Shown here: in pieces, positions 30,407-60,671 of the stretch
Numbering within the stretch: position 1 is the stretch's first letter
Layout of the letters: every line of letters starts with the position of its first letter
NCBI GenBank assembly: GCA_963806535.1
Contig: CAWDYC010000006.1
Location: 64,001 to 128,000 of the forward strand
Reading direction: 5' to 3'
Length of the DNA: 64,000 bases
Origin: Candidatus Bathyarchaeota archaeon
GTDB lineage: Archaea; Thermoproteota; Bathyarchaeia; Bathyarchaeales; Bathycorpusculaceae
The notes under the pieces: model-generated
Seen by the model: the letters and a program-made list of their open reading frames with translations, nothing else
What the model was told of the DNA's origin: nothing
Database searches by the model: none
Translations under genes and position numbers: made by a program

Positions 30407-30506
30407 GACTTTTTCCGACTTTTTTAGACTTTATTCGACTCAACTTGCAGAGAAATCAGACTCTAAATTGAAAAAGCAACTTAATGCACAAAGAACAAAA
30501 CATAGC
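30407..30506 (+). repeat. Decamer-array + conserved tail element, copy A
   Basis: GACT at 30407/30417/30427/30437, then CAACTTGCAG...AAAAAGCAACTTAATGCACAAAGAACAAAAC. Confidence 0.85.
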
Positions 30507-30619
30507 ATAACATTTTGTTTCCCTCCCTGAGTGCAGTTTTAGTGAGACTTTCAGAAGATTTTTCAATAATTTTAGCATCACAATAATTTTATATACGCTA
30601 TTTACCATACAATATTTGT

Positions 30620-30844
30620 ATGTCAGAAATACTTACAGTAAGAGTTGACAAAACTCTTAAAGGGAAGATAAAAAAATACAAACTAAGCGTTAGCAAAATC
30701 ACACGACAAGCACTAGAAGAAGAAATTAAGAAACGCGAAAAACAAGAACTAACGGATGCGATTGTTGAAATGAAGACGCTGCTTGAAAAGATTCCCGACG
30801 AAGAAATAATAAAAGCTATAAGAGAATCAAGAGACCAACGATGA
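30620..30844 (+). CDS. RHH/CcdA-like antitoxin (VapB)
   Basis: MSEILTVRVDK...VSKITRQALEEEI...IRESRDQR; stop overlaps the vapC start. Confidence 0.85.
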   Translation: MSEILTVRVDKTLKGKIKKYKLSVSKITRQALEEEIKKREKQELTDAIVEMKTLLEKIPDEEIIKAIRESRDQR

Positions 30845-31251
30845 AATACCTTCTAGACGCAAGCTCGCTTATGCTGTTAATCAAAAAAACCGAGGTCGAA
30901 TCAACAGTCAAAATTCTGCAAGAATCTTCTATTCTAAATCTTACATTTTACGAAGTAGGCAACGCACTTTGGAAAGAAAGCACCCTCTTAAAGTTCTTAA
31001 CGCCGCAAGAAGCCAAGAAACTAGGAGCCATGGGGCAGATTATTCTCGCAAAGATTGATAAGCTGTCAAGCGAGAGTGAAGATTTTCAGAAAATCCTGGA
31101 TATTGCACAAGATGAAATCCTATCTTTTTACGATTCAAGTTATGCATTTTTCGCAAAACAAAAGGGACTGACACTAGTTACTGAAGACAAGAAACTTGAG
31201 TTGAAAGCCAAAAAATACGTCACAGTTCAAAAGCTTGTAACATTGTTTTAA
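30841..31251 (+). CDS. vapC: VapC PIN-domain toxin
   Basis: YLLDASS...YEVGNALWK...SFYDSSY...LVTEDKKL. Confidence 0.9.
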   Translation: MKYLLDASSLMLLIKKTEVESTVKILQESSILNLTFYEVGNALWKESTLLKFLTPQEAKKLGAMGQIILAKIDKLSSESEDFQKILDIAQDEILSFYDSSYAFFAKQKGLTLVTEDKKLELKAKKYVTVQKLVTLF

Positions 31252-31299
31252 AGTGAAGATAATCTTTTTCTAATGATCGACTAATCAAAAATAGTCAGA

Positions 31300-31372
31300 G
31301 TCTTTTTTGGACTTATTTAGACTTTTTCCGACTTTTTTAGACTTTATTCGACTCAACCTGAAAGGATTTAAG
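31300..31372 (+). repeat. Decamer-array element, copy B (tail truncated)
   Basis: GACT at 31310/20/30/40/50, then CAACCTGAAAGG; the last three units are identical to copy A. Confidence 0.85.
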
Positions 31373-31444
31373 TTTGTTGCCACAGGAATTTTTCTGACAA
31401 ATTATATATCGATTTAAAGCAGTGTAATATTCAAGGCGATTTGT

Positions 31445-31671
31445 TTGGAAGAAATTGCGGATAGGATAGTTATTGATCCCGATGTTATGGTGGGGAAGCC
31501 TGTCATTAAGGAACTCGAATTCCAGTTTACCTTATTGTTGAATTCATGGCAAATGGCATGACAGAAAATGAGGTCTTAGAGGAGTATCCACAATTATGTA
31601 AAGACGACATCAAAGCTGCGCTTCTTTACGCTTCGAAATGCTTAGAACGCGAAGTCACTGTCACGCTTTAA
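31445..31671 (+). CDS. DUF433 antitoxin (frameshift near 31510; not in ORF track)
   Basis: Manual translation MEEIADRIVIDPDVMVGKPVIK/GTRIPVYLIVEFMANGMTENEVLEEYPQLCKDDIKAALLYA. Confidence 0.85.
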
Positions 31672-31681
31672 GGTAAAGCTT

Positions 31682-31738
31682 TTGACAAATATTCTGATAG
31701 ACGAAAATGTGCCAGGCGATTTTTTTGCTTTTGAATAA
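31682..31738 (+). pseudogene. Truncated DUF5615-type PIN toxin remnant
   Basis: TTG-TNILIDENVP matches the M-x-F-L-L-D-E-N-V-P start of the usual DUF433 partner, then stops after 18 codons. Confidence 0.55.
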
Positions 31739-31756
31739 TAAAATCCTTATAAGATA

Positions 31757-32056
31757 ATGAGGACTATTTTAATGATTATGTGTGAGAAGATTCCTCTTCC
31801 AATTCTGATAACAAAAGAGGGAAAATGGTTTGTTGCTTCCTGTCCCACCTTGGACATTGCTACCCAAGGAAAAACAGAAAAAGAAGTAAAAGAAAACATG
31901 GCTGAACTCATAGATGAATACTTAAGTGACCCAGATACTGCAAAGCCTTCTTTGGATGATTTAATGTCTTTTTCAATAACGAACATTCCCGTCAAGGTTC
32001 CTAAGAGTGTTATGCATGGCAAAGCTCCGACCGTTGCCCCAGCGAAAAGTAATTGA
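31757..32056 (+). CDS. hicB: HicB-family antitoxin
   Basis: EGKWFVASCPTLDIATQGKTEKEVKENMAELI. Confidence 0.85.
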   Translation: MRTILMIMCEKIPLPILITKEGKWFVASCPTLDIATQGKTEKEVKENMAELIDEYLSDPDTAKPSLDDLMSFSITNIPVKVPKSVMHGKAPTVAPAKSN

Positions 32057-32231
32057 AATTCTTAGGTCTAATGGCTTTCAAGAAGTAAGGTCCAGTAAGC
32101 ACATTACATTCAAGAAAAAGGTGGGTCACCATATTTTAACAACATGGGTGCCGCATCACAAAGAAGTTACAGTCTTTGTGATCCAATACATTATCAAGCA
32201 AACGGAAAAGCCTCGCTCCGAATTTGAATAA
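32007..32231 (+). CDS. hicA: HicA-family toxin
   Basis: VIEILRSNGF...SKHITF...VPHHKEV...IIKQ. Confidence 0.8.
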   Translation: MLCMAKLRPLPQRKVIEILRSNGFQEVRSSKHITFKKKVGHHILTTWVPHHKEVTVFVIQYIIKQTEKPRSEFE

Positions 32232-32356
32232 ATCTATTCATGGGATGGTTGATCATTCAAATCTGCAAATAGGCGATTTGGGTGCTGCTTACTTATTTGT
32301 TTTATTAAATGTCGTAATAAACATTTTTATATACTTTTGTATATTATAATAGACAT

Positions 32357-33622
32357 ATGTTAAGAGATGTTATTCTCGGCCAAAAAACAGAGCTTGAAAA
32401 GGTCCTGAAAGAAGTCTACATCGAGCGCGACATAGAACCGTTTTCACTTGAACATAATCTTATTAAAGTTATCATGGGTCCTAGAAGAGCTGGGAAATCC
32501 TTTTTTGTTTTACACACCCTAAAACGCATGGGACTATTTGGATATGTAAATTTTGATAATGAAGCTTTAGTTCTTCTAGAAAACTACGATGATCTTATCG
32601 CTGAAGTCGACAGAGTGTATGAAAAACCAACAACCATTTTTTTTGATGAGATACAAAACCTGCCAAGATGGGAATTGTTCGTTAACAGGCTTCAACGTCA
32701 AGGCTATAACATAGTAGTGATAGGAAGCAACTCAAAGCTGCTGAGCAAAGAACTCGCAACACATCTGACAGGTAGGCACATTCCCACTACAGTACTTACA
32801 TTTTCATTCAAAGAATATCTTAGAGCTCGAAAGATAGATCTATTAAAGTTAACTACGCAACAAAAAGAAGAACTGTTACTTGAATACCTGCGCTCCGGAG
32901 GCTATCCTGAAACAGTGATGAAAAAGCTGGACGCAGGCCAATATCTTGGAGTTTTGTTTGATTCTATACTATACAAAGACATAATCAAGCGTCATAATAT
33001 CAGAAAAGGACCAGATATAGAAAAATTAGCTATCTTTTTGCTCTCAAACTTGGCGTCAGAATTATCTTATCGTTCACTTGCCAATGCAATCGGGCTAAGA
33101 AGTAGCATAACAGTCCAGAAATACTGCGGATTTTTGGAAGAAGCGTATCTGATGTTTACAGTAAGCAGGTTTTCTTATAAAACCAAGCAGGTAGGGCAAA
33201 ACAGAAAGATGTATTGTTATGACAATGGTTTTGTCGCTGCAAAGGCATTTCAAGCCTCCCCAAACTTAGGCAAACTTTTTGAAAATTCCATTGCAATACA
33301 CCTCAAGCAAAAAGAAATAGCGAAACGATTTGAGCTCTTTTATTGGAGAAACCAGCAAGGTGAGGAAGTCGATTTCGTTATTAAAAAGGGAACGAAAATC
33401 GTAGAATTAATTCAAGCATGTTATATGCTGGATAATGAGAAGACACGGGAAAGGGAAATTCGAGCGTTACTGAAAGCAGGCAAGGAACTGGGATGCAATA
33501 AGCTCACCGTTCTCACTTTACGAGAAGACAAAGAAGAAGAGCGGGAATGGTTTGGAATCAAAGGAAAAATCACTTACATTCCATTTGAAAAATGGGTTCT
33601 GGAAGGAGCAGTCACCAATTAG
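32357..33622 (+). CDS. AAA_14 ATPase with DUF4143 C-terminal nuclease-like domain
   Basis: GPRRAGKS Walker A, FFDEIQ Walker B, GGYPE, YCYDNG, EVDFV. Confidence 0.9.
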   Translation: MLRDVILGQKTELEKVLKEVYIERDIEPFSLEHNLIKVIMGPRRAGKSFFVLHTLKRMGLFGYVNFDNEALVLLENYDDLIAEVDRVYEKPTTIFFDEIQNLPRWELFVNRLQRQGYNIVVIGSNSKLLSKELATHLTGRHIPTTVLTFSFKEYLRARKIDLLKLTTQQKEELLLEYLRSGGYPETVMKKLDAGQYLGVLFDSILYKDIIKRHNIRKGPDIEKLAIFLLSNLASELSYRSLANAIGLRSSITVQKYCGFLEEAYLMFTVSRFSYKTKQVGQNRKMYCYDNGFVAAKAFQASPNLGKLFENSIAIHLKQKEIAKRFELFYWRNQQGEEVDFVIKKGTKIVELIQACYMLDNEKTREREIRALLKAGKELGCNKLTVLTLREDKEEEREWFGIKGKITYIPFEKWVLEGAVTN

Positions 33623-33664
33623 CGGTGGAAATTGATAATGGTGCAGGTCGTAAATCTTCTTAAA

Positions 33665-34042
33665 TTATGGGTCTATGAATTTGGCATCTTTGAAATCTTT
33701 CAGGTGTCGGTCGCTGGTAATTATTTGAGCGTTAAAGGCTCTGGCTGTTGCTACAATTAACGAGTCTGCCATTCCCAAGCTTGCATTTAAACTAATTTCC
33801 GCTGCTTCTATTGCTATTTGAGAGGTTAATTCTATTATTTTTGTTCGGTTTATCTGTGCGGAGGCTTCTAGTGCACTTTGCTCGCCTTGGATACTTCGAA
33901 TCCGTTTGTAGACTTCATACATGACAATGGTTGGTGTTACGTAATTTTCCTCGTTTGCATCTTCAATGTATTTTGCATATTTTTCTGCAAGTGGGCCTTC
34001 GAGGAAATATTCTAACCAACCGTGCGAGTCGAGGAGAATCAA
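33665..34042 (-). CDS. vapC: VapC PIN-domain toxin
   Basis: ILLDSHGWLEYF...YEVY...MADSLIVATA...TSDRH. Confidence 0.9.
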   Translation of the reverse strand: MILLDSHGWLEYFLEGPLAEKYAKYIEDANEENYVTPTIVMYEVYKRIRSIQGEQSALEASAQINRTKIIELTSQIAIEAAEISLNASLGMADSLIVATARAFNAQIITSDRHLKDFKDAKFIDP

Positions 34043-34248
34043 ATTCGATCCTCTTCTTCTCGGATGTTTTGTGTATTTCCACCTTTCACGAAGCCGCGCA
34101 TTTGTTTTATTGGTCTTTGTGGTACTAAATGTAAAACTCCTGCGGTTTCTATCATAATGATTTCTTCGCCGGCTTTCAGGTTCATTTTTTCTCTGATTTC
34201 TCTTGGAATTACAACTTGAAACTTAGAGGACAGTTTTACTTTAGCCAT
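34039..34248 (-). CDS. AbrB/MazE-type antitoxin
   Basis: ATG at 34248: MAKVKLSSKFQVVIPREIREKMNLKAGEE. Confidence 0.88.
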   Translation of the reverse strand: MAKVKLSSKFQVVIPREIREKMNLKAGEEIIMIETAGVLHLVPQRPIKQMRGFVKGGNTQNIREEEDRI

Positions 34249-34431
34249 ATCGATCTCCAATAGTTGAACAGAAACTAATCGATATAAAGATTTTCGTAAA
34301 ACACATTTAGGGTCGCAGTCTTGCAAACAAATCAATGTTACCTGTTTCAAGCCCGTTCTGCCTATTCCGCCCGCGCTAAACAGCAACAGTTAAAATAGGG
34401 AAACTAAGGCCTGAGTGGGACTCAGCGTGCG

Positions 34432-35139
34432 CTAATTTATAATTCCGTCAAGCCATGATAGATGCCCAGTGTAGGGTTGAGTTCCAACATCAACAATGGT
34501 GCTGAGACACGTTGAAGGCAGTCCAACCACGTATAACCCTTCTGACCCTTCTGAAGTGACAGTGTAGTTAACAACCACTTGATAATAGCTCACCCATGTC
34601 GCACTTGATTCAGTAACACTCAATCCTGAGCCAGTTCCAAGCGTGCCATTCGACAAAACATTTAACACGCCAACGGGATTTCCAAAAACCGGATTGAATA
34701 TCGGCATCGTCAAATTGTTAAAGGCGATTCCCGTATACGTGACCGTAAATTCACCCACGCTATTCGGGAGCAGAACAAATTCAATCGTATCCGAAGTAGG
34801 ATGGACGGTCTTCACGAAACCGGTCGCGTTCGAAAAAGACAATGTCGCGAAGATGGCGGGGCCCCCAGCGATGTTAGGACCCCCAGCTGAACCAACGATT
34901 CCCTGAGAAGACGTTCCATTTTGCCCCCCAACTGAACCAACAGTTTCCCCAGAAGACGCCTCATTTTGCTTCTGAGGCAGGTAGCCAAATTGATAGCAAA
35001 GCGAAACCAACACTACAACGATTAGAACTGCCACTATTACGTAAAGCCATGAGTGTTTCCTAATCCTTTTTTGCATCTGAAGATCACTAAGCAAAGATGG
35101 ATGGATGAACGTAATTATTAATCCTACAGTATAGAACAT
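34432..35139 (-). CDS. Membrane-anchored hypothetical protein
   Basis: Single TM after MQKRIRKH, then a Gly/Ser-rich beta domain. Confidence 0.6.
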   Translation of the reverse strand: MFYTVGLIITFIHPSLLSDLQMQKRIRKHSWLYVIVAVLIVVVLVSLCYQFGYLPQKQNEASSGETVGSVGGQNGTSSQGIVGSAGGPNIAGGPAIFATLSFSNATGFVKTVHPTSDTIEFVLLPNSVGEFTVTYTGIAFNNLTMPIFNPVFGNPVGVLNVLSNGTLGTGSGLSVTESSATWVSYYQVVVNYTVTSEGSEGLYVVGLPSTCLSTIVDVGTQPYTGHLSWLDGIIN

Positions 35140-35172
35140 ATTACTGTCAAGGTGTCCAACTTCTGAACGGAC

Positions 35173-36657
35173 TCATTTTTGTATTGTTCGTCTTTTTTTG
35201 AAAACTAAGGTAATTGTGGTTATAATGCCAAACATGACTACGATTGTAAGTGCGCAATAAGTAAACTCAGGAACAGCGGGAGTTGATGAAGGATTTGCTG
35301 ATGCAGGAGTTGTGTTTGTTGAAGAGCTTGCGGTCGGAGTTGTGGTCAATGTCGGTGTGGGTGTCGGCGTTGGTGTTGGCGTAGGGGCTGTTAGATTTGA
35401 AGCTTGAGGGTTTGGCTCTGTCAAGAATGGGACAAAGTTTACAGAACCCACGTTGAAGTCGTTCTTGGTGTCGTAAATGGTTTGATTTATTGCTTGGGTA
35501 TCAGTTGTTCCCCACCAATTGTAAGTCGCATTTACGCTCATGGGTACCTGTGAGTAAAAGTTGTAGTTAGAGTTGTTTTGGAGATTATTATTTTGAATTG
35601 TGGGCGTTGCGTTATAACCGAGTTCAGATAGAGATATTCCAATGGAATTTCCTGCTACTGTATTATTTTGTACGGTTGGAGTAAATGTCCCGCCTCCAAA
35701 AACTTCGGTGAGGTCAATACTAATGCCTTTAGAATTACCAACCACTAGGTTGTTTTGGACTGTTGCATAACAGGGAAGGTTTCCGCCAAAAACTCTCTCA
35801 GTATAGAGGCTTATGCCTACTTGGCATCCATAGACATGATTGTTGTAGATTGCCCCATAGCCGTCGCAGAAAATTCCTCCTTCGTTATTAGTGGTGCCAT
35901 TTACTATTTGAGGGGGACCGGTAACAGTGTTATTGAAGATTCTGGGTGTGCCTTGGGGGCTGCCCGATATGATTGAACCTTCAACTACGTTGTTTGAAAC
36001 TATACAAGCTTCTGCAGGGGCTGTAATGGCTCCCAGATAGACCTCCCCAAGAACGATATTACCTTTGACGTTATTGTTTGAAATAACCGATGAATCTACG
36101 ACAGCATCACTCTCCACAATCGGTATTGCAGAATGGCAGTTAATATCGCCAGTTACTATATTGTTTGATATTATTGATGAAGTGACTGTGATTTGGCTGT
36201 TGATGATGCTGTTGTCAATTTTTATGGGGTTGCTGCTGGAGATTGAAGTTTGATTGATAATTGAGTTTTCAATTAAGCAGCCAGAATTAGTTTGTTCATT
36301 CCAGCTGTTACTAGCGATTGTGAAGGTGATTTGTCCACCGTTAAAGGTAATCTCTTCATTTGGATTGCCAATTGCGCTTAAGGTGCCGTTTACTTCAATG
36401 TAGTAGCTTCCAAGGTTCACTATTACGCCTGGCTGGATCGTTAATGTTGCTCCTTGATAAACAAGAGTATTGCCTGTTAGGGTGTATGGACTGCCTGACG
36501 TAGTCCAGGTAGTGTTTGAACCAATAATTCCACTTATGTTTGTTCCACTTTGAGCCAATCCTAACGGCTGAGTATTGAACAAGAATGCACCTGAGACAGC
36601 CACAACGAGAATAAAGATCAAAGCAAAACTCTTGTCTAAGGTTCTCATAGTCACCAC
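35173..36657 (-). CDS. Beta-helix (PbH1) surface protein with PEF-CTERM sorting signal
   Basis: Signal peptide, NTTWT..GSPY, NATYNWWGT, PT-rich linker, VPEF-TM-KKRR. Confidence 0.85.
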   Translation of the reverse strand: MVTMRTLDKSFALIFILVVAVSGAFLFNTQPLGLAQSGTNISGIIGSNTTWTTSGSPYTLTGNTLVYQGATLTIQPGVIVNLGSYYIEVNGTLSAIGNPNEEITFNGGQITFTIASNSWNEQTNSGCLIENSIINQTSISSSNPIKIDNSIINSQITVTSSIISNNIVTGDINCHSAIPIVESDAVVDSSVISNNNVKGNIVLGEVYLGAITAPAEACIVSNNVVEGSIISGSPQGTPRIFNNTVTGPPQIVNGTTNNEGGIFCDGYGAIYNNHVYGCQVGISLYTERVFGGNLPCYATVQNNLVVGNSKGISIDLTEVFGGGTFTPTVQNNTVAGNSIGISLSELGYNATPTIQNNNLQNNSNYNFYSQVPMSVNATYNWWGTTDTQAINQTIYDTKNDFNVGSVNFVPFLTEPNPQASNLTAPTPTPTPTPTPTLTTTPTASSSTNTTPASANPSSTPAVPEFTYCALTIVVMFGIITTITLVFKKRRTIQK

Positions 36658-36672
36658 TTGGATTAAATTCGA

Positions 36673-36718
36673 ATAAAAGCCTTCTCGTAAAGATCTCTTG
36701 ACTTAATTTTAGTCAAGG
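36673..36718 (-). promoter_or_regulatory. Conserved promoter module with TTGAC-N8/9-GTCAA palindrome (copy 1)
   Basis: ATAAAAGCCTTCTCGTAAAGATCTCTTGACTTAATTTTAGTCAAGG; TATA about 25 bp before the ATG; near-identical modules at 39923 and 41889. Confidence 0.7.
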
Positions 36719-36952
36719 TTTGTTTACTTAGGGGGAACTCTGGGAAGTGATGATGCAATTTTTATCTTTTCTTTGTTGAAGGGTTCGCTTAAATAATTAA
36801 ACGCATCCATAAGCCGCTTTGTTGGGGTTGGGTCGGCTCGAATCCGCTTAATTTCGAAGATATAACTCTTTTTTTGTGTCCCTTGAGCTCCGGGAAAAAA
36901 ATAGCACCAAGCATTTTTAGGATAGACAGGGGGTCGGACCGGAAATTGTTTT

Positions 36953-37726
36953 TCAGAAGGTTTGTGGTTGCTGTGGAGGCGCTGTTCTTGCTTTCATCGA
37001 GTAGTAATACAGTGTTATGGCTATTGCAAAGATTGGTGTTATGAAAGCTGTCAGAATGCCGGAAATAAGAGGGCTGACTACGCCAAGTGGGGCAGTGATA
37101 AATCCGATTACGCCATTTACTATGCCTACAATAATGCCAAGTCACAAGCAATAAACCGAAGGTTTTTAGCCATCTGTTGCTAACGAGAACGCGACTTCTA
37201 GAGACGCTCTCAGAAACGCCTGTGCCCTCAAGCATTATGGCTGGGTAAACAAGCGAAAACATTATTGCAAGGATTATTCCGGGAATAACTAACGCAATTA
37301 ATCCAAGAACGATGAGAATACCTGTGATAATGCTTGCTGCCAACAAGGAAAGTATCTTTGTCAAGGTGAAATTGAAGGATGTTTGCAGGTTTGCTTGTCC
37401 TTTTTCCAGCAAATCTGAAGTGAATTTTATTGTGATTCCTGTAGTGATGCTGTTGGCGATCCAGCTTACGATTCCGGAAAAAATAGAGACCGTTACGGTT
37501 GCTGTCAGGTAGGTTGGAAACCATGCTAATAGTTGCTGCGACGTGGGATGCACTGGTGCTACAGGTATGACTATGGCTGACCTCACAGCAATGGTTACCA
37601 ATCCCGTTAAGATTCCTGCAGCAGGAACGGAATTAAATACTGTGCAAAATTTCGCGAATATAAATTGAACGTTTGCGTTAATATTTCGCCTATGGAGAGC
37701 TCGCTTTGCGGTTTCTTGCTTTCCAC
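36953..37726 (-). CDS. Polytopic membrane protein (GDPD membrane-domain-like), frameshifts near 37620 and 37140
   Basis: GTG-ESKKPQSELSIGEILTQTFNLY...LVIPGIILAIMFSLVYPAIMLE...SRSRVLVSNRW...LYYYSMKAR. Confidence 0.65.
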
Positions 37727-37915
37727 TAACTTCTGCCTCTGTTGTCCTCTTGCTGTTTGAGCTTATTAATTTTGTTAGTCAATAAAGTCTGTTAACCAAA
37801 CGCTTTCTAAGTCACGAAAGAAACCATCACGAAAAAGGTTAACTCTCTCGAAAAGCGTTGTCTGATAATTAGGCTTAACCATTTTTCAGACTGTGTTAAA
37901 ACTCATAGCTAATTC

Positions 37916-38953
37916 CTAAAGACATTTGAGTATCCGAACTGTACTTGTGGGATACACCCAAAAATGGGAAAAGGTCCACTTAACGGTCTTTCGATGCCTT
38001 AGCTTGAACGCCATTAATAGTAGCACAAGGGCAAACAAGGGTAAAATTGCTAATGCTGGAAACTCTGGAACGGTTGGTGTTGATGTTGGGTTTGTTGATG
38101 TCGAAGCTGTTGGATTGGTTGTTGGGTTCCTTGTTGGTAATTGCGTAGGTACATTGGTTAGTTGGGAGGTCGGTGTAGCTGCGGGAGTTGAAGTAGACAT
38201 AGGCACTGCAACATTGTAGCTTAGCAGTTCTGACGAAAAAGCAAGATTTCCGTCTTGAAAATAATCAAGCTCTTTAACCTGCATATTTGCCTTTGTCGAG
38301 TAATAGATTTCAGAACTTGAGCCGCCATCATTTGTCATTCTAATTACAAATGTTTGAAATTTACCTGCTGGAACCGTGACATCTTCAGACCTTAAAACTG
38401 TAAAGTTGAAGGTTGTTTTTTGAGAATCTTTACCTTCAGTTAAGACGCCATTCAAGATGTGCTTTGTAGTCAGCGTTTGAGTCGTTGTTGCTGTCCAGTT
38501 TTTTCCAACATAGAATGGGAAGTCACTATTATTCATTGGTAGATTGTAATCGGTTATAGTCGTGATAGTTTCATTAAATGTCGATGTCTTTGTATCTAAT
38601 GTTATTTCTGACTTAGGCGTGCTGTAGTCTGTTTTGGTTTCATATTGCGTGCCGTTTGTTGTCCAGGTCCCTTGTCCTGAAGTGGTTCCTCCACCTGTCA
38701 ACGTAAATTCTGTACAATCATAACTGGAAACAGACACAGATGTACTCGTAATCTCGTTCGTTGTAGTACCGGTCATTCCCGAAGTCTGTCCATAGTTGAC
38801 GCGATACGTCCACTTGTCGCCCAGTGTGCGTACAGGCGATGTAGCCGTTTGATTTTCAGCTATTGTGAATGGAATTGTTTCTGAACTTATAATAAAGATT
38901 GAGATGATTAAAGCCACAATCAAGGATGAACATTTGATGGTTAACTTTTGCAA
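37916..38953 (-). CDS. Surface protein with PEF-CTERM signal (Thr-rich beta domain)
   Basis: GDKWTY, VGKNWT and EDVTVPAGKF motifs, PT linker, VPEFP-TM-KLRHRK. Confidence 0.8.
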   Translation of the reverse strand: MQKLTIKCSSLIVALIISIFIISSETIPFTIAENQTATSPVRTLGDKWTYRVNYGQTSGMTGTTTNEITSTSVSVSSYDCTEFTLTGGGTTSGQGTWTTNGTQYETKTDYSTPKSEITLDTKTSTFNETITTITDYNLPMNNSDFPFYVGKNWTATTTQTLTTKHILNGVLTEGKDSQKTTFNFTVLRSEDVTVPAGKFQTFVIRMTNDGGSSSEIYYSTKANMQVKELDYFQDGNLAFSSELLSYNVAVPMSTSTPAATPTSQLTNVPTQLPTRNPTTNPTASTSTNPTSTPTVPEFPALAILPLFALVLLLMAFKLRHRKTVKWTFSHFWVYPTSTVRILKCL

Positions 38954-39019
38954 TACATTCCTTCAATGTTCAACTTGTATCTTCAATTTTTCTATTTAAT
39001 ACTTGTTATCTTAGTGAGT

Positions 39020-39897
39020 TCACTGCATCAGGAGACCATGGGGCAGGTGTTTGTGTTTTTTGAAGTAAACCAACAAACCAGCAACTATCGTTAACACAAG
39101 AAAAGATATAATTGTTAATAATGGAAACTCTGGAACGGTAAGAGTTGAAGTAGGAGAAGAAGAGGTAGAATTTTCACCGATGGTTATTGTTCGTGTGTTA
39201 CTCCAACCACTTGCTGAATCATAGGCAATGGCCGGTTCATATAAGCCACCAATGGTAGGGAAAAACGGATGTTGAATATACCAGTATGTAGAGTTGTGCC
39301 CAATGAAAGCTTGTACTTGAAAATCAACCTGACCACTATATGGAATTGCGGTTAAAAATGACCCATATCCACCATTTTGATTTTCATTTCCAGAGTAGAA
39401 TGTTTGAATGTCATAGCCTGATGCTCCGTAAAGGTCTGTGGGCAATACAGGGAGAGTACTAACTGTATAACTTGAGTTTGACTGAGGCAAAGAATCGTCA
39501 ATATACCATGCAAAAAGAGAAAGTGCCATCTCCATTGTAGGAACTAGTTCTGTTTTGTATTGGGTAAACTTCAGTCCAGTTTTCTGCAAAGTGTGGTTTG
39601 GCTCTGATGTCAAAGTATATTTGGTAAGCTAAACCGTTGATTGGAGTAGTCAAAGGGCTGGTTCTTAATTGTAACTTCAATAGAGTTATTACTAATTAGT
39701 TGTGTTTCATTTTCTCCAGTGTAAGAATTTGTTGAAGTTACACTATAAGAAGCATTTACGAACTTAACGGTGAACTGGGGCATAGATGGTGTAGGTATTG
39801 ATTGAGCAAATACAGGCTTTATTATCCATAGACTTAGACCTGAGATGACTATGATTAGAATAAATAACAATGCGTGCCTTTTGTTTATTCTACTCAT
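39020..39897 (-). CDS. Surface protein with PEF-CTERM signal (frameshifts near 39640 and 39510)
   Basis: Signal peptide, PSMPQFTVKF, IEVTIKNQPF, QVDFQVQAFIG, SGWSNTRTITI, VPEFP-TM-KKHK. Confidence 0.75.
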
Positions 39898-39922
39898 ATT
39901 TTACATCTGGGACTGGCTTTTG

Positions 39923-39976
39923 TTATAAGGTTTCTCGTAAAGGTCTCTTGACTGAAGCTCGTCAAGGTTTCTTGAC
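39923..39976 (-). promoter_or_regulatory. Conserved promoter module with TTGAC-N8-GTCAA palindrome (copy 2)
   Basis: TTATAAGGTTTCTCGTAAAGGTCTCTTGACTGAAGCTCGTCAAGGTTTCTTGAC. Confidence 0.7.
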
Positions 39977-40009
39977 CAATACTAATTCTCAAGACGGTCG
40001 GGGCATTTC

Positions 40010-40250
40010 TTATGTTTAAGCTTGAACGCCATCAAGAGCACAAACCAAATAAAAAATACAAACTGGAATACAAAGAAAATTGCACTCAGAAGCAGTCTTA
40101 AACTAAATCTTTATGGAAAAAGCTGCCTTAGGTTTGCGCAGGTTTACGTGCTTGTGCTTGCTTTTGCTTGTGTGTGCGTGTTTGTGCTTTGGTTTGCATC
40201 CTTGTACGTAGCTTGCAAGAGATTTAGAAACAAAATCAAAAAAGAAACTT
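40010..40250 (+). repeat. ~240-bp direct repeat, copy 1 (contains a decamer-array element with TGC/TAC units)
   Basis: Near-identical to 44887-45132; TGC/TAC every 10 bp from 40135 to 40205, then GTAGCTTGCAAG...AAAAAAGAAACTT. Confidence 0.9.
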
Positions 40251-40352
40251 AAATTAAAGAAAACAAAACCTGCCAAAAAACCATCAATAACTATACATCG
40301 TTATTGAGAGATTTTCAAAAAATAATAATCATAACAAAAATAACAACACTTC

Positions 40353-40614
40353 TCACTGATACACTGTATTTCTTGGACCTATTGCTACAACATAGATGAT
40401 TTTATCTTTCTCCGAAATTGTATAAATTATTCGAAGTTTTTCAACCCGTAGACTCCAGTTTTCTTTTAAATCGCCGTGAAGTCGTTTTCCGCCAAAGGGG
40501 TCTTCTTCTAAACTGATTAAACATTCTAGAACTTTGGATTTTGGCTTTTCCTTCTAACTTCTTATAGAAATGTTCTGCATGTATAGACAAAACAACGGTG
40601 TGCTTCGATTTCAA
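40353..40614 (-). CDS. RelE/ParE-family toxin (frameshift near 40535; not in ORF track)
   Basis: Manual translation ...LEEDPFGGKRLHGDLKENWSLRVEKLRIIYTISEKDKIIYVVAIGPRNTVYQ. Confidence 0.8.
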
Positions 40615-40828: not shown

Positions 40829-41047
40829 CTAACCACTTGACTATACAGATGAAAACCGTGCTTATAAATTTGAAAAAACTGCTAAAACTTCTTTTTGTTG
40901 TCAATATCTCTAAAATTTCTTATTCCAAATTATCTCATTTGCTCGTGACAGTTTGCAATAACTCCTTATTGAATCCGCAGATGATTATGGCTTAGATTAA
41001 AAAAATATCCTTAAAAACAAAAAATGTGATCCTTCTGATTTTTTTTT

Positions 41048-41863: not shown

Positions 41864-41888
41864 GCTTAGTGTTAAGAAATTATAGGCG

Positions 41889-50900: not shown

Positions 50901-52124
50901 AACTATAAAGTAAAGTCAAATGTGGCAACCATCAATGTTTATTCGCAGCCTTCTGTAGTGATTAGTCCAGTTTCAGTAAGTATGACTGTTGGAACCGTGC
51001 AGCAGTTCACTTCTTCTACAGTGGGTGGCTTAATCCCTTACACTTACCAATGGTACCTGAATGACTCCGCTGTCTCAGGAGCCACTACCAGCACCTGGAA
51101 CTTTACGCCAACAGCAGTTGGACACTACAAAGTCTATCTCTATGTAACTGATGCCCTAAACGTCAGAGTACAATCGAACATTGTAACTAACATTGTAGTT
51201 AATGCTCTCCCAACGGTTACGATTACTCCAACAAACGTAAACATGACTGTTGGCGGGTCGCAGATCTTTAATTCAAATGTTGTAGGCGGCACTACACCTT
51301 ATTCCTATCAATGGTACCAAAATAGCACAGTCGTATCAGGGGCTACAAGTGCAAGCTGGAACTTTATGCCAACAACCGCTGGAACCTATGTCATCTATGT
51401 AAAAGTTACTGACATCGACAACACTGCTGCAAACTCTAACACAGCCACAGTCAAAGTCTACTCACAACTAATCGCAACAATCAACCCTACTAACGTTACA
51501 ATGTACTTTGGTCAATCACAAACTTTTAACGCGTCCGTCAATGGAGGCAAAGCCCCATACACTTATCAATGGTACCTCAACGGCACGCTCGTTCAGGGAG
51601 CAACCAACACAAACTGGACCTTCACACCTAATGCAAACGGCAACTACCAGATTTACGTTTACGTTACAGATAGTCTTGGAAATCACTCTACATCCAACAT
51701 AGCCACACTCAACGTTTGCTCAGTCTATCTTATGCTCAGTACCGATCAACAGAACTACTCAAAAAGCCAAAATCTAACCTTCACAGTGACAGTGTTAAAC
51801 CAGCAAAACCCACTGCTAGAAAGCAGCCTATCTCTAACTGTTACGGGTCCTGGAGGCTACAGCTTCTACGATTTTCAACCCATAAATGTCTCCGCTAATG
51901 GAGTTGGCGAGTACACTTTTACCTGGACTGTTCCCAACGTAGACGGCGTATATGTGGTAGAGACAAGTCTGACTCCTACACAGTTAACGGCTTATGACGC
52001 AAAATATCTAAAAGTATCCGAATCCACTCGGATCATCGCAGGGGAACAGTTTGGTTGTTTTAAAAGGTCTGCTGAGCCAGGTTTCTGTTATTTCTGTTTT
52101 TGTGGGAAGTCAAGTCTTTGTTAG
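47991..52124 (+). CDS. Giant secreted protein: Kelch propeller + GH43/GINT1-N-like propeller + Ig/PKD-like repeats
   Basis: YIFGG...YNP..DSW Kelch repeats; ADPFMF...WYMFFE...FPYVF...YYLMPE; repeated GG.PY.YQWY...GTY.IY..VTD units. Confidence 0.85.
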   Translation: MMVGFIGKAYKDMSFPNRQIARALKKPAICILVFLTLSVVFTNVHAATTGMWTTKAPIPVNRADVPAVPYNNMLYIFGGYEHSYGGGQAEVYAYNPATDSWAQKASMNYARWGEAAAALNGFAYVFGGDNGADVYPVEAYNFASNSWTIKNDLPSDLVGQGEMAVAVGSLIYVFGGWSGQSAYSYNPSTDSYTQLANIPYSTRWGECAYVNVNGQDRIYIMAGFTSGVAEVNTMYYYTPANNQWTYAGTTPYAEFGGLRDNPVINGLIYFGYGQASNLGTFYSNLYTYDPNTATWTQLPSGTYQRDGVGCAVVNGNLYVIGGRNSYTPDIPGLNYNEQYSSGSLSVSISPTHVIMYLNQTKTFTSSVSGGTAPYSYQWYLNSNAVQGAKSSTWNFTPTQTGTYNVYVTVTDNLNNHAQSNIVNNIIVNPPLQQTPLVPDWSNVTQDFFTLVPGTVEPVLSGASVTDRTADFVADPFMFHEGNTWYMFFEVGQNNGEYSEIGLATSPDGFTWTYQQIVLSEPFAMAFPYVFKWQGNYYLMPETYSENEVRLYEATNFPYDWTFVNNIISGQSFIPVDSQIFRYNNLWWMFTGDDRNCYVFYSNNLIDPSAWHMTSYSPIVTDDSSEARGGGRTIVFDNGTIIRLTQMNNESYGQAVRAFQVDTLTLTSFSEHEIPQSPIVEATNSPDGGWNYYAMHTVDPWWTGNGWIACVDGGGDDWWTIGIYVSPLNATISPTQVRMDLSQKQVFTASAYGGTPPYTYQWVLNGTNVSGATGSTWSFTPTQTGHYNVYVTVTDSFSTQVQSNIVNNITVYNPPSVSISPSSPKITLGASQLFSSTVSGGVTPYTYQWYSNNTAVPNAINPTFNFTPNAVGTYNIFLNVTDNSSYKIQSNTVVLTVYSQPSVTISPNSVNMTINATQQFTSTVAGGLSPYNYQWYYSNGTAITGATTSTLSFKANSTGTYNIYLNVTDSLNYKVKSNVATINVYSQPSVVISPVSVSMTVGTVQQFTSSTVGGLIPYTYQWYLNDSAVSGATTSTWNFTPTAVGHYKVYLYVTDALNVRVQSNIVTNIVVNALPTVTITPTNVNMTVGGSQIFNSNVVGGTTPYSYQWYQNSTVVSGATSASWNFMPTTAGTYVIYVKVTDIDNTAANSNTATVKVYSQLIATINPTNVTMYFGQSQTFNASVNGGKAPYTYQWYLNGTLVQGATNTNWTFTPNANGNYQIYVYVTDSLGNHSTSNIATLNVCSVYLMLSTDQQNYSKSQNLTFTVTVLNQQNPLLESSLSLTVTGPGGYSFYDFQPINVSANGVGEYTFTWTVPNVDGVYVVETSLTPTQLTAYDAKYLKVSESTRIIAGEQFGCFKRSAEPGFCYFCFCGKSSLC

Positions 52125-55218: not shown

Positions 55219-55284
55219 ACAAAGAATTAGTTCTGGATTGTTTTATTTTTTACGATTTTGTGGCTCCTTTGCCTGAATGACCTG

Positions 55285-55374
55285 AACTTTTTTGGACTTC
55301 ATTCGACTCAACCTGCAACCGATTTAAGCCCTAAATCAAAAAAGCAACTTGAAACACAAACACCAAAATTTGCC
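55285..55374 (+). repeat. Decamer-array + tail element, copy F
   Basis: AACT/GACT at 55285/95/305, then CAACCTGCAACC...AAAAAAGCAACTTGAAACACAAACACCAAAATTTGCC. Confidence 0.85.
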
Positions 55375-55490
55375 TTCTTTTCACAGTGTTCTTTCAAACA
55401 CCTCACAAAACGCGTTATGATTGTGTTTTTGCCTAATTTTTATAAATGCCGTGGCGATTCCAGAGTTCAAGACTTCAGGGTGAAATACGG

Positions 55491-57364: not shown

Positions 57365-57943
57365 TTACGCTCCTGACACATCTAGTCGCCTGGTTTTTAA
57401 TACGAAATATAAACCGCCTGCGAAGACGGCTGTAAAGGTGAGGGCAAGAAGGTTTAGCAAATCCGTTAGCAGGAGAGTTGGAATTGCGTAGGGCGCTTTT
57501 ATTACGTATGCTGCGAGTCTGTAGGCCATTTGGGATGCGACTAGTCCGCCGGTCCATCCGAAGAGCCAGCTTAAGGTTGCTAGAAGTAGTAAGCGAAGGG
57601 TAATCATTGCTCGATACATTTTTTTTGAGGAACCTGTTTGCCAGAGGATGCTCATGGTTGGAATCATGGAGCGAATTGATTGAAGGCCTACAACGTATGA
57701 GGATACTGCGAGGAGAGACCAGGCTGCTATAAGCCAAACCCAGAAGATACTTGTTAATTCGGATAGGAGACTTAGGGTTACTACTGCGAATCTTGAGGCT
57801 GTTCCGGTGTTGAAGAAGCTGTATGCCATGTTGCTTATGGATAAGCCGCTGGTGATTAAGCCGACGATGGTGGCTAGGGTTAGTATTTGTTTTATGAAGT
57901 CGTTGGGTCGGCCGATGCATAGGCGGAATGCAAGCGAAGACAT
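57365..57943 (-). CDS. FtsX-like permease membrane subunit
   Basis: Four TMs and an IL.QTGSSKK loop; co-oriented with the adjacent permease. Confidence 0.55.
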   Translation of the reverse strand: MSSLAFRLCIGRPNDFIKQILTLATIVGLITSGLSISNMAYSFFNTGTASRFAVVTLSLLSELTSIFWVWLIAAWSLLAVSSYVVGLQSIRSMIPTMSILWQTGSSKKMYRAMITLRLLLLATLSWLFGWTGGLVASQMAYRLAAYVIKAPYAIPTLLLTDLLNLLALTFTAVFAGGLYFVLKTRRLDVSGA

Positions 57944-58262
57944 GGCTTATTTCACTTTTCTGAACGGATTATGCTGGTTCTTAACTTATTAGTTGTTGCC
58001 TTCGTAAGGAATTAAATGCTAAGATCTACCCTTAGGCAAAATTGTTTACATTCAATAATTGAGACTTGGTTTTTCTATATCGCGTTTATGACAAGTGCCC
58101 ATTGCCAAAGCAGAAGAATTGTGCCCCCAGAGGTTTCTTCTTCTTTTGAAGCAGAGAAGAAGTAGGATGTGCTATTTCCAGCCGTCCTTCTTCTTCTATT
58201 AGAGAAAAACAACACCCAGTGCTAACACCAACTGTTATTGTTCTTTTTGAATAACGCAGTAC

Positions 58263-59873
58263 CTAAACCCAAAGTTTATCGTTCCCGTTAGAGTAAACAA
58301 GCGACATGCCGTAGCATAGTTTACTCGACCAGTCAGCAGGCAATGGTTCACCATAGGCAATCATGTCATAGCCATTTTTGGACATTAAATTGTAAGTAAA
58401 GAATGGTTCACCATTCCATGCTGAAACGCCAGTTAGGTAGGCATATCCATAGTTTATGTTTGGTTTAATTCCGAAGTAGTTGAAAAGCCCGTAGACATGA
58501 GAGTCTCCCAAAAACGTTGTGTTTGAAGGAAGAGAGGCATTAACCCAACTGGATGCAGACAAATCCGACGGTTTAAAACCCCATTCTCCGCCTAAAAAGT
58601 TGTTATTGTCAACAACCGCGGAATAGCTTTGGAAAGAAAGCGCAAAAACGATAATAAACAGAAAGGCAACCGCCAACGAAATCTTGGTCGCATGACGGAT
58701 TCTGCTTCCGCCTTTGACGAATCTAATCAAGCCAAAAGCGGCAAATATTCCAAGTGGCATAAAAAGAAATGTAAAGAGCCTGTAAATTATTCCAAAGCCT
58801 TCAGTGGATCCGAAGACACCAAAAGCCACCAACACCAAGATGACGCCAAGCCACAGCGACATGAAAGTGTATGATCGATTCTCCGATTTTTTTAGCAATA
58901 GATACCCTACAGCCGCCAACATGGCAACTGCAAAGTAAGGTGCCGCTTCCATAACCAGATCAGAGCTAAGTGTCGGGGCAAAAGGAAGGATTGCAGTTCT
59001 TGTTCCTACAGCAAGCAATGCAAAGGCAATGGCTATGGCGATGATTGGAATTGCCCAGCGTTTTGACGAAGTTTTTTGTCCAGAACTCAGTTGAAAACCC
59101 ACTTGAAACCCAGCGAGCAGACTGAGGAAGGCAAACAACGACAAACCATCACTCAAGCTAAAAGAAATCCCCACAGGCTTCGCGTTAAGGTAGATGAAAA
59201 AGTACGCGAGACCAACCAATCCCATAATTGTTGGGTAAAGCAGTTTTTCCGGTTGAAGCCTTTCACCGCGGGTCCGCATAAGCAGAGGAACAATGGAAAC
59301 TTCAGCCGCCAAAACGAAAAGAATAAACGCCAAAGCAAAATGCGCCAAAATTAGACCCAGAGAAACAAACGAAAAAAGAATCAAGTTAGGCATTTTTCCT
59401 TTTTTGAGAAGTAGTAATACGCCAATCATGAAGAGGGGAAGCGCAAAGGTTTCTTTGGTTACAGACGCTGTGAATATTGCGTCAAACGAGGCTGCAGCAA
59501 AAAGAATAGATGCCGCTGAGGCAAGAACGAAATTTCCCGTTAACTTTCTCACTACGACAAAAAGAAATAACGTGGTTAACGAGCTCACTAGCGGAATTAT
59601 TAACGGCATCAAATTCAAAGGCGCCACACCGAAAACCAAAGATGCCACGGCTCCAAAGACGCTTACTGCTGGCCAACAAATATTGTAGGTGTCGAAGGTG
59701 GGGTTGCCGACAAGTTGTGTCGGAGAATTGGATAGCAGCAGGTTTGAGTTTCTCATTAGGGTCCAGCTGTCTACTCCCCATGGTGCGCCAGTTACCAGAG
59801 TGGGGTAGATTCTGAGAGCCATGGCTATTAGCAGGGGTAAAAGGATTAGCAGTAGTTTCCATCCGAGGCGCAC
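58263..59873 (-). CDS. Polytopic GT-C-like membrane protein
   Basis: LRIYP...GVDSW, TKET, about 12 TMs, C-terminal soluble domain ending LVYSNG. Confidence 0.6.
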   Translation of the reverse strand: MRLGWKLLLILLPLLIAMALRIYPTLVTGAPWGVDSWTLMRNSNLLLSNSPTQLVGNPTFDTYNICWPAVSVFGAVASLVFGVAPLNLMPLIIPLVSSLTTLFLFVVVRKLTGNFVLASAASILFAAASFDAIFTASVTKETFALPLFMIGVLLLLKKGKMPNLILFSFVSLGLILAHFALAFILFVLAAEVSIVPLLMRTRGERLQPEKLLYPTIMGLVGLAYFFIYLNAKPVGISFSLSDGLSLFAFLSLLAGFQVGFQLSSGQKTSSKRWAIPIIAIAIAFALLAVGTRTAILPFAPTLSSDLVMEAAPYFAVAMLAAVGYLLLKKSENRSYTFMSLWLGVILVLVAFGVFGSTEGFGIIYRLFTFLFMPLGIFAAFGLIRFVKGGSRIRHATKISLAVAFLFIIVFALSFQSYSAVVDNNNFLGGEWGFKPSDLSASSWVNASLPSNTTFLGDSHVYGLFNYFGIKPNINYGYAYLTGVSAWNGEPFFTYNLMSKNGYDMIAYGEPLPADWSSKLCYGMSLVYSNGNDKLWV

Positions 59874-60108
59874 GTTGAGTACCTACACAGATAGATTTCA
59901 CTAAAAAGCCAATTAACTACAAAAGCTTTGTTGAAAGGTGACTGATTGTTTTTACTAAAAATTTAATGGTTCCGGCACGTTTTTGAAGTCCGAAAAAGAT
60001 ATTCTTTCTTGTTTTTTCCTCTGTATTTTCACTTTCGAGATTATCTGTTAATTCCTGGGGAATTGGCTGAAGGCTCGACACTAACTGATGCTTCATTTGA
60101 TTCTATGT

Positions 60109-60423
60109 CTAATCTTCAACAGTAACTGTTTCATCTAGTACTTTGTTTGCGGATTCAACTGATTTTTTGTTTGTTTCTGAAGCCATTGTTTTTCGTCTTT
60201 TCATAAGAAATATGGCTAGAATCACTATGTCCAGCGCAATCGCAGCTCCTATGGCGGCAAAAGCAGCGACATTATGAGCGGCGTCATTGCTTATTATCCA
60301 GAACATTGAGAATGAAGGATTCGCAAACAGGTTAGTTGCAATCCCAAAAGCATAAAAAATTAAGATGCCTACAAAAACTATCAATGCGATTTGCAGTTTC
60401 TCCATTGGGGATATTTTTCTCAC
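60109..60423 (-). CDS. Two-TM hypothetical protein (paralogue of 53566-54150)
   Basis: Shared TM hairpin motif; SD AGGTGA. Confidence 0.55.
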   Translation of the reverse strand: MRKISPMEKLQIALIVFVGILIFYAFGIATNLFANPSFSMFWIISNDAAHNVAAFAAIGAAIALDIVILAIFLMKRRKTMASETNKKSVESANKVLDETVTVED

Positions 60424-60528
60424 TTGTATTCACCTAAGGTTTGCTACATCGTTATGAGATTGAATTTTTCAAAATCTCTCAGAAATATCAATTTCTTGCC
60501 GATTACTTAAAAACATTGTGTGCTAGGC

Positions 60529-60671
60529 AACCTTAACTGACCTTTCCAGACCTTTTTGGGCCATTTTGGACCTTTTTGGACCTTTGCGAACCTTTCTGGT
60601 CCGCAACCTGTAGACGAATTAAGCTTTAAAACAAAAAAGCAACCCAAAATACAAAGAACAAAATTTGCAGC
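60529..60671 (+). repeat. Decamer-array + tail element, copy G
   Basis: NNCC units every 10 bp from 60529 to 60599 (GACCTTTTTG-like), then CAACCTGTAG...AAAAAAGCAACCCAAAATACAAAGAACAAAATTTGCAG. Confidence 0.88.

Follow-up and report, generated by a model that had tools for sequence, protein, structure and literature searches.

A 64,000-nt stretch of the Candidatus Bathyarchaeota archaeon contig CAWDYC010000006.1 (positions 64,001–128,000, forward strand; hereafter the window) carries nine copies, A–I, of a repeat that represents a new clade-specific family of non-coding, modular, dispersed repeats in Bathyarchaeia, roughly 100–220 bp long. In each member, 2–11 decamers lie upstream of a core, in register with a conserved module that continues from the core into a tail, and the two modules, array and tail, reassort between copies. 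All nine window copies are intergenic and all lie on the + strand (9/9); their number, strand and positions, proposed in an initial annotation of the window, were confirmed by the sequence, by Tandem Repeats Finder (TRF) and by profile searches. TRF called period-10 arrays at seven of the nine sites (30407, 31302, 40149, 41210, 42493, 45029/45045 and 60549). The copies, and one related stretch, are:

30388–30505, + strand: copy A; short AACCTG-type left motif, three to four GAC-type decamers from 30404, core CAACTTGCA at 30441–30449, full tail
31300–31372, + strand: copy B; five to six GAC-type decamers, core CAACCTG, about 20 nt of tail, then unrelated sequence
40135–40296, + strand: copy C; TGC-type array of about eight units, diverged core and tail, optional 3′ extension motif (CATCAATAAC type)
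41040–41165, + strand: copy D; two to three degenerate CAC-type units, core CAACCTGCA (41072), full tail with a 2-nt insertion, 3′ extension (CGTCAATAAC)
41192–41313, + strand: copy E; directly behind D, four to five TGC-type units, core at 41248, tail conserved for the first ~40 nt only
42491–42644, + strand: copy F; about eight GTGAC-type decamers, core variant GTCCTGCA, full tail
45017–45161, + strand: copy G; near duplicate of C, diverging from C within the tail
55275–55376, + strand: copy H; two to three GAC-type decamers, core CAACCTGCA (55309), full tail
60529–60672, + strand: copy I; GCAACCT-type left motif, about seven GACC-type decamers, core CAACCTGTA (60604), full tail
40042–40085, + strand: degenerate tail-like stretch before the array of C, with a twin at 44920–44963 before that of G

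Some descriptions of single copies had to be revised. Copy D, read initially as tail only, has the degenerate units listed above; copy B, said to lack most of its tail, keeps about 20 nt beyond the core; and copy E retains just the first ~40 nt of its tail. The array of B is 98% identical to that of A over 41 nt (repeat family D4), and C and G are 92% identical over 159 nt (repeat family D6). The tail-like stretches (repeat family D11) are 76% identical to the tail of F and 97% identical to each other; with the C array behind it, such a stretch has the layout of a tandem composite found in other genomes.

Several results place the conservation of the tail far beyond chance and show that it is not an effect of A-rich composition. 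First, a profile made of 51 copies from other genomes only matches H (55305–55373, E 6.4e-15), I (60601–60668, E 9.5e-15), F (42571–42638, E 2.1e-11), A (30437–30503, E 4.5e-11), D (41069–41138, E 2.3e-9) and the conserved part of E (41244–41281, columns 2–39, E 4.6e-5). Copies C and G follow at E 0.012 and 0.017, and B, with its array plus core and ~20 nt only, has no match at E<5. Second, the tails score 14.1–54.0 bits (C 14.1, G 14.2), whereas the best of 4000 dinucleotide shuffles of those tails reaches 8.0 bits. Third, leave-one-out nhmmer within the window recovers A, D, H and I at E 1e-10 to 1e-14, F at 8e-6, the first half of E at 8e-4 and C/G at 0.006–0.014. Finally, an IUPAC tail pattern has five matches in the window versus none in 100 dinucleotide shuffles.

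The family extends well beyond this contig, as a scan of related genomes, proposed at the outset, revealed. One scan of genome contigs with the exact tail pattern returned 85 loci, of which the profile confirmed 51; excluding L031, which overlaps L030, and L058, a weak partial match on a Chloroflexia contig (E 1.9e-4), left 49 loci holding 93 copies. All but three of these loci (46/49) come from 11 metagenome-assembled genomes (MAGs) that bear Bathyarchaeia or Bathyarchaeota in their titles and originate from peat, bog and soil, and the other three (L081, L083 and L085) have no displayed title; the family is thus present in at least 11 Bathyarchaeia MAGs. The remaining 34 scanned loci, mostly bacterial and with other pattern lengths, are chance matches. 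Copy number by the exact pattern ranges from 1–2 on contigs of 1.2–1.6 Mb to about 20 in one MAG. Rfam matched only two tRNAs in the window, none over the repeat, and at E≤1 in L076 and L049 only tRNAs plus spurious matches outside the elements; phage and plasmid collections held no match, and literature searches turned up no described equivalent, in keeping with the initial view that this is not a described family. To our knowledge, the mobile DNA and chromosome organization of Bathyarchaeia, abundant uncultured archaea of sediment and peat, are almost uncharted. The repeat has a high copy number, is conserved in at least 11 MAGs and is built unlike the palindromic prokaryotic repeats, such as repetitive extragenic palindromes (REP), BOX, MITEs (miniature inverted-repeat transposable elements) and attC. 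On the practical side, it breaks assemblies, its profile can serve as a clade marker, and its arrays offer a handle on strain variation akin to variable-number tandem repeats.

The array has a strict helical period, which strengthens the earlier description of 10-bp phased units: 185 of 193 called units are exactly 10 nt. Within an array, positions 4–6 are near-invariant (modal fractions 0.91, 0.91 and 0.96, against 0.63–0.78 at the other positions; 78 arrays with at least four units). Position 6 is G or C in 94% of units; A/T makes up 46% at position 4 and 61–80% at the remaining eight positions. Each decamer thus consists of one near-invariant N-W-C trinucleotide, mostly GAC, and seven variable AT-rich bases, and the arrays therefore present A/T tracts phased once per helical turn. 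Runs of at least four A or four T number 171 in the arrays, compared with 131.8 ± 7.4 after shuffling (maximum 152 in 500 shuffles); on the element strand, 59 arrays are T-rich and 25 A-rich. Phased A-tract DNA is intrinsically bent and easily wrapped. As in kinetoplast-type DNA, A/T tracts recur every 10 bp between short GC-containing clamps; unlike in kinetoplast-type DNA, the predicted phased bend is only one module of a dispersed two-module element.

The modal trinucleotide varies between arrays (GAC in 31 of 87, CAC 11, AAC 10, TGC 8, TAC 7, ACC 6, GTC 6, others 8) and usually equals the one just before the core (0.73, 0.72 and 0.91 for its three bases). The decamers do differ between copies, as first noted, but they are not strictly copy-specific, since the same classes turn up again in other loci and genomes. 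Distal units match the array consensus at fewer positions (6.92 versus 7.98 of ten), a difference to which the rule for calling array ends may contribute. These figures touch only weakly on the earlier suggestion that arrays grow by slippage or templated synthesis: distal units are the more degenerate ones, but strong variation at seven of the ten positions shows that the arrays are not freshly slipped. The array of one copy (L025, ~1840–1900) has a stretch of repeated GGGAAC hexamers immediately upstream.

The conserved module, defined from 77 distinct canonical copies, spans about 65 nt, is asymmetric and A/C-rich (top strand 50% A, 26% C, 13% T, 10% G) and starts in phase with the last unit. 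It consists of the CAACCTGCA core, a AAAAAAGCAAC box and a ACAAAGAACAAAA box at fixed spacing, with spacers that are less conserved in sequence and fixed in length; the boxes are under constraint. A further 3′ extension with the CGTCAATAAC motif occurs in about 13 of 99 copies, as well as in window copy C, and beyond the second box some copies continue into a different 3′ end.

The repeat acts as double-stranded DNA. RNAalifold predicted no pairs in an alignment of six tails, and single-strand DNA folds of five whole elements on both strands were no better than shuffles (z-scores −1.40 to +2.19); with no consensus fold and no Rfam match, a structured RNA or an attC hairpin was rejected. Among 78 elements, the longest exact inverted match shared by the two ends is 5.56 nt on average (maximum 8), compared with 5.36 (maximum 8) after shuffling, which gives no terminal inverted repeats (TIRs), and the longest direct match between the flanks averages 4.65 nt, against 4.51 in the control, which gives no target-site duplication (TSD). 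The box pair RYYYAAC ... GTTRRRY at a distance of 50–150 nt is absent from all 156 strand readings of the same elements, and RYYYAAC alone is legible in the core of some copies. These results agree with the initial exclusion of three familiar classes. Clustered regularly interspaced short palindromic repeats (CRISPR) are identical 23–50-bp repeats with unique spacers of comparable length, whereas the units here are contiguous, of 10-bp period and without spacers; a MITE would have TIRs and TSDs; and an integron is rejected by the absence of IntI and of attC features, that is, of a fold and of the box pairs. The subterminal hairpins of IS200/IS605-type ends and of palindrome-associated transposable elements (PATEs) are likewise absent, no stable hairpin occurring in the elements folded. 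A MITE derived from the neighbouring insertion sequence (IS; 27826–28680) was rejected because its ends are unrelated to the repeat.

Coding explanations fare no better. A stop-free frame across 142 nt exists on the + strand in 50 of 96 copies and on the − strand in 26 of 96, rates expected because the sequence is T-poor. Information content by codon phase is 1.24, 1.21 and 1.14, with no codon periodicity. Copy I lies inside a 65-aa − strand open reading frame (ORF), and the tails translate to hydrophobic peptides; a small − strand protein was nevertheless rejected, given stops in most copies, the 2-nt indel in D, the lack of codon periodicity and a 10-nt period that shifts the frame. A remnant of the end of PEF-CTERM genes was also rejected for the family: this origin holds only for the sequence next to C and G (40000–40090) and for the overlap of copy E with the 3′ end of the − strand ORF 41219–41944, whose last ~32 residues are encoded by E on the opposite strand. 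That ORF is one of four on the − strand in the region 34432–41944 (35173–36657, 37916–38953, 39020–39613 and 41219–41944) that encode secreted proteins with Thr/Ser/Pro-rich linkers and a C-terminal sorting signal composed of a PEFP motif, a hydrophobic helix and a basic tail, which we take to be PEF-CTERM. A block of ~270 bp is duplicated at 40000–40270 and 44880–45150 (91–92% identical, diverging inside the tail) and holds a fragment like the 3′ end of a PEF-type gene, the degenerate tail-like piece and copy C or G.

The surroundings of the repeat show no preference for any gene arrangement. The nearest downstream ORF in range lies on the element strand in 25 cases and on the opposite strand in 22, with 18 and 18 upstream, and neighbouring genes are divergent at about 14 sites, convergent at 14, (+,+) at 14 and (−,−) at 10. 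Flanking genes are mostly housekeeping ones (Asp/Asn-tRNA synthetase, Nop5, fibrillarin, eIF6, ribosomal proteins, DHODH, PEPCK and enolase); toxin–antitoxin genes (PIN, HicA, ParE, MazF, MNT and AbiEi types) accompany the repeat in 11 of 49 loci as well as in the window. When 216 flanking ORFs were clustered, no family exceeded three members, apart from spurious ORFs inside the repeats, and no recurrent companion emerged.

This setting bears on the idea that the repeat works at the level of transcription, as a hairpin-less archaeal terminator or insulator, or as a promoter or small RNA unit. Archaeal RNA polymerase terminates at oligo-T, and a run of at least five T stands on the − strand of core and tail in 93 of 96 copies, on the + strand of the array in 47 and on both in 46; some copies also lie 14–70 nt from the 3′ end of a convergent gene. 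We consider such a role very unlikely, given that divergent neighbours show no shortage of the repeat (~14 of the 52 sites that could be classified), that half of the arrays have no + strand T-run, that a 10-nt period has no meaning for RNA and that neither RNA structure nor an Rfam match was found. By inspection, the genes beside the repeat carry canonical TATA boxes of their own, which lie outside it, and the A-rich boxes of the module are unlike them.

Direct repeats of about one helical turn that bind protein cooperatively beside a core are familiar from iteron arrays, type II/III plasmid centromeres (parC, tubC) and lambda-type arm sites, where the repeats are system-specific and occur once per replicon beside a rep, par or int gene. 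The Bathyarchaeia repeat differs from such sites in its dozens of copies, its lack of a linked gene, the single trinucleotide fixed per unit and the many array classes on one module. An iteron origin or plasmid centromere of the one-site-per-replicon kind was rejected, as no plasmid matched and no rep or par domain was found in the 181 flanking ORFs scanned (80 + 101, of 197 kept); a role in segregation, raised initially, is unlikely because there are dozens of copies per genome. A link to replication, either as a remnant of an origin with iterons and an unwinding region or as a priming zone that offers GTN once per turn on the G/T-rich strand, would fit the resemblance of iterons beside an AT-rich asymmetric region to plasmid and virus origins. 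It would also fit the − strand G-T-N (+ strand N-A-C) of 59 of 87 arrays, primases such as those of T7, T4 and pRN1 being known to recognize trinucleotides. We nonetheless regard it as highly improbable: the copies are too numerous and often stacked, the third base varies between arrays, which is unexpected for a single primase, no rep or par genes are adjacent, and there are no phage or plasmid matches.

Many copies occur in stacks. Of 62 clusters, 38 are single, 15 double and 7 triple, and 2 have five copies; the 24 stacked clusters are all head to tail, and none of the 62 mixes orientations. Spacing within stacks is mostly 145–200 bp, with no helical phasing between the stacked copies (resultant length 0.14–0.22), which carry different array classes. 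One two-element composite recurs in six loci (L030, L040, L043, L049, L061 and L076) as a tail, a short ATGGGG-type linker and a TGC-type array; its core-to-core distance of 147–148 bp is the modal spacing (8 of 37), and the array upstream of it differs between loci.

Several lines of evidence show that array and tail reassort. First, array identity hardly follows tail identity (r = 0.074 over 2950 pairs). Tails that are at least 90% identical (22 pairs) stand behind arrays less than 50% identical in 13 cases, and one same-genome pair combines a tail identity of 98% with an array identity of 22%. Second, in 32 tail-sharing pairs, similarity stops 1–7 nt left of CCTGCA. L030 and L076 have a common tail behind different arrays, and window copies A and B, conversely, a common array before different right sides. 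The heavy divergence of seven of the ten unit positions indicates that the arrays are old rather than freshly slipped, and pairs with the same tail and different arrays therefore need recombination, not point mutation.

Third, orthologous sites keep the tail and change the rest. Three pairs of sites have the repeat at the same position and in the same orientation, with flank-proximal tails 80–92% identical, an unalignable flanking spacer, and differing array class and copy number. These are L035/L051 (flank protein 78% identical in amino acids), L027/L070 (71%) and L059/L076, the last between the divergent genes for tRNA-Thr(ggt) and tRNA-Leu(tag), where L059 has a single copy and L076 a stack of five. 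Promoter-like sequence beside both tRNA genes is also conserved between these two loci (L076 1047–2258, L059 1478–2253). A fourth pair, L065/L072, has its copies downstream of the L31e gene in opposite orientations; synteny is broken there too, next to a HicA gene.

Some of these observations would suit a host architectural element, in which the array sets the position of, or wraps around, archaeal histones or some other nucleoid protein, or forms a static bend, while the rigid A-rich module excludes or recruits a factor; the copies would then be chromatin or topological landmarks under host selection, their duplication and recombination being incidental. Bathyarchaeia have histones, and archaeal histones prefer a 10-bp alternation of GC and AT, in line with the strict period, the enriched A/T tracts and the occurrence of arrays in either orientation (59 T-rich versus 25 A-rich). 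Conservation of the boxes at three orthologous sites amid unalignable spacer and the unbiased gene neighbourhood point the same way. Such a role is rather unlikely all the same, as a signal of composition only would not keep one exact trinucleotide per array (0.91–0.96), only four orthologous site pairs were found among the 49 loci, one of them in opposite orientation, copy number differs as widely between genomes as described above, and stacked copies are not helically phased to each other. Were the repeat architectural, archaeal chromatin would have in it a natural collection of sequences that bend or wrap strongly.

Exchange is suggested, too, by near-identical copies that a single genome carries at different loci; their right boundary is sharp, ~65 nt past the profile start. 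Concerted evolution within genomes was rejected, mean tail identity being 0.725 within and 0.723 between genomes; nearest neighbours show a modest within-genome excess (30 of 71 copies versus 18.1 expected, maximum 31 in 1000 permutations). These features, together with the absence of gene-orientation bias, the presence of several copies at contig ends and the opposite copy orientation in two species at the L31e locus, would fit a purely selfish non-autonomous transposon served by an unlinked enzyme that needs neither TIRs nor TSDs (HUH, IS110-like or a tyrosine transposase), with the module as its recognized end and the decamers as subterminal binding sites such as those at Tn7, Mu and CACTA ends. 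We judge this explanation unlikely: only one end is defined, without the hairpins of IS200/IS605 or IS91 ends, no transposase recurs near the copies, the window IS shares no end sequence with the repeat, and the boxes are kept at old orthologous sites, which is unexpected for decaying insertions.

The reading that we favour, tentatively, is that the repeat is a nucleoprotein and recombination site acting at the DNA level, in which the phased array bends or wraps the DNA and recombination at or near the core moves segments made of tail, cargo and array. We infer that the conserved module is the recognition site of a protein and that the array supplies a bend or cooperative binding sites. A trans-acting protein would recognize the module, aided by the phased array or polymerizing along it, and recombination at or near the core, either site-specific or ordinary homologous recombination on the 65 bp of homology, would join arrays and tails of different copies. 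Segments of tail, cargo and array would be excised and then re-inserted, with a cargo that may range from nothing, giving head-to-tail stacks, to small gene sets such as toxin–antitoxin pairs. Recombination of this kind would account for the co-oriented runs (9/9 in the window), the head-to-tail stacking and the independent assortment of arrays and tails, as well as for the bracketed cassettes of ~0.8 kb described below and the orthologous sites with a kept tail and a changed array and copy number. Junction pairs whose tails are at least 80% identical number 32; in 8 of them the array next downstream is similar, and in 2 the copy's own upstream array. The initial annotation had offered a recombination site or a non-autonomous element; reassortment and stacking are consistent with that proposal, which stays an inference because no recombinase, nicking enzyme or HUH Rep was tied to the element.

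A number of observations weigh against recombination at the core. The 8-versus-2 result rests largely on the one recurrent composite, and when all 479 junction pairs are taken, the upstream array of the copy itself correlates better with the tail (r = 0.217) than the next array does (0.031). Linkage decays inside the tail, from r = 0.56 to 0.04 between tail segments, and ordinary homologous recombination or gene conversion could therefore yield the same mosaics. High tail identity partly reflects purifying selection on the boxes rather than recent ancestry, and the single scan, made with an exact pattern, biased our sample toward canonical tails. Dyad symmetry such as tyrosine and serine recombinases use is absent from the core. 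Within ±2 kb, 38 of the 62 clusters are solitary, many of them between housekeeping genes, and recombination between copies gives no account of how solitary sites were first colonized. Finally, in the flanks examined, no recombinase, nicking enzyme, HUH Rep or transposase was tied to the repeat: a tyrosine recombinase lies within 2 kb in only one of 49 loci (L080), it is unrelated at the BLASTP level to the one in the window, and both miss the cut-offs for XerA or integron integrases (44.5 and 66.9 bits versus 220).

The initial annotation had suggested testing for co-occurrence with an integrase or a HUH Rep. In L080, the 446-aa tyrosine recombinase (1997–3751) is divergent from a copy ~250 nt away, beyond which come one gene and then two co-oriented copies; this layout resembles an integron and is the single case among 49 loci. 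The window recombinase (22932–23876) lies 6.5 kb from copy A; its score is 20 bits for TIGR02249 (cut-off 265) and 44.5 bits for the XerA model (cut-off 220). No HUH Rep was found near it in 21.4–27.7 kb by Pfam, NCBIfam or PHROGs. Around it, 21459–27676 is a possible integrated element that encodes two small winged-helix proteins and, in addition, has eight ORFs with no family, among them one that matches a PHROG of unassigned function; a 27-nt inverted repeat, 93% complementary, is placed at 22485–22511 and 25380–25406. The IS at 27826–28680 encodes a DDE_Tnp_1 transposase (IS4/IS5 type) and has no end sequence in common with the repeat.

Four toxin–antitoxin segments of 0.77–0.9 kb are bracketed by co-oriented copies: A–B and C–D in the window, and two in L043. 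The window segments contain:

30620–31251, + strand: VapB-like antitoxin and VapC (PIN) toxin pair (CcdA-like match 0.0019, PIN 1.6e-5)
40356–40828, − strand: ParE/RelE-type toxin fragment (40356–40553; ParE_toxin 1.3e-6) and a 66-aa upstream ORF (40628–40828)

The first is enclosed by A and B, with a tail-to-core interval of ~0.85 kb, and homologous VapB-like/VapC pairs stand beside elements in L025, L030 and L043. The second is enclosed by C and D (interval ~0.79 kb); its toxin lacks the N terminus, as the match spans profile positions 29–88 of 89. Beside the first segment, 28897–34386 is a dense toxin–antitoxin region with four PIN (VapC) genes and their MazE-type or CcdA-like partners, a HicA toxin (32007–32231) and an AAA_14/DUF4143 ATPase.

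A bolder proposal is that the array–core–tail element is the recombination site of a hairpin-less, integron-like gene-cassette system in Bathyarchaeia, an idea we consider improbable. Crossovers at the core would excise and insert circles of tail, cargo and array, and in this way would both build co-oriented runs, such as those at 30.4–60.7 kb of the window and on contig JBEKGO010000033.1, and scatter solitary sites through the chromosome; the enzyme would be one other than IntI, and the phased decamers would be its accessory, arm-like binding sites. Like attC sites, the repeats are co-oriented and non-coding, bracket small gene sets that are often toxin–antitoxin pairs, form cargo-less stacks and have conserved and variable parts that reassort. 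Unlike attC, they have no R″/L″–L′/R′ inverted repeats, hairpin or IntI, and the majority of copies stand alone between housekeeping genes. Should the core prove to be a recombination junction, the repeat would mark a new route of gene-cassette traffic in archaea, in particular for toxin–antitoxin modules.

Other described repeats share single traits with this family. The pneumococcal BOX elements (boxA, n × boxB, boxC) are also small, dispersed, intergenic and modular, with a tandem module of variable number; as in the Bathyarchaeia repeat, they differ in length from strain to strain or locus to locus, and their copies are found clustered with other repeats, but they have TIRs, TSDs, an RNA fold and a 45-bp tandem unit (PMC3049150). 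The Bathyarchaeia repeat, by contrast, has no TIRs, TSDs or fold, and its 10-bp unit stands at one end, phased with a single asymmetric module. The Borg repeats of Methanoperedens are A-rich, intergenic, fast-evolving archaeal tandem repeats with partial repeats at their flanks; they are perfect, of many unit lengths, of independent origins and without a shared flanking module (PMC9879509). Here, unlike in Borgs, the units are always 10 bp, seven of ten positions are degenerate and every array abuts the same module. A Porphyromonas gingivalis MITE that contains a minisatellite is another dispersed prokaryotic repeat with an internal tandem array (PMC4596501). As a MITE it has inverted ends; the Bathyarchaeia repeat has none.

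Other features of the window concern genes away from the repeat. A subtilase gene appears split in two (45696–46889 and 46837–47775), and in 19076–21268 and 17891–18962, respectively, a glycan phosphorylase-like gene and a gene for a PAS protein appear split into three and two pieces; frameshifts, pseudogene formation or assembly errors may be the cause. The region 47991–52124 encodes a 1377-aa surface-type protein with Kelch, PKD and Ig-like domains, whose gene has internal DNA repeats spaced 258–261 nt and 1149 nt apart.

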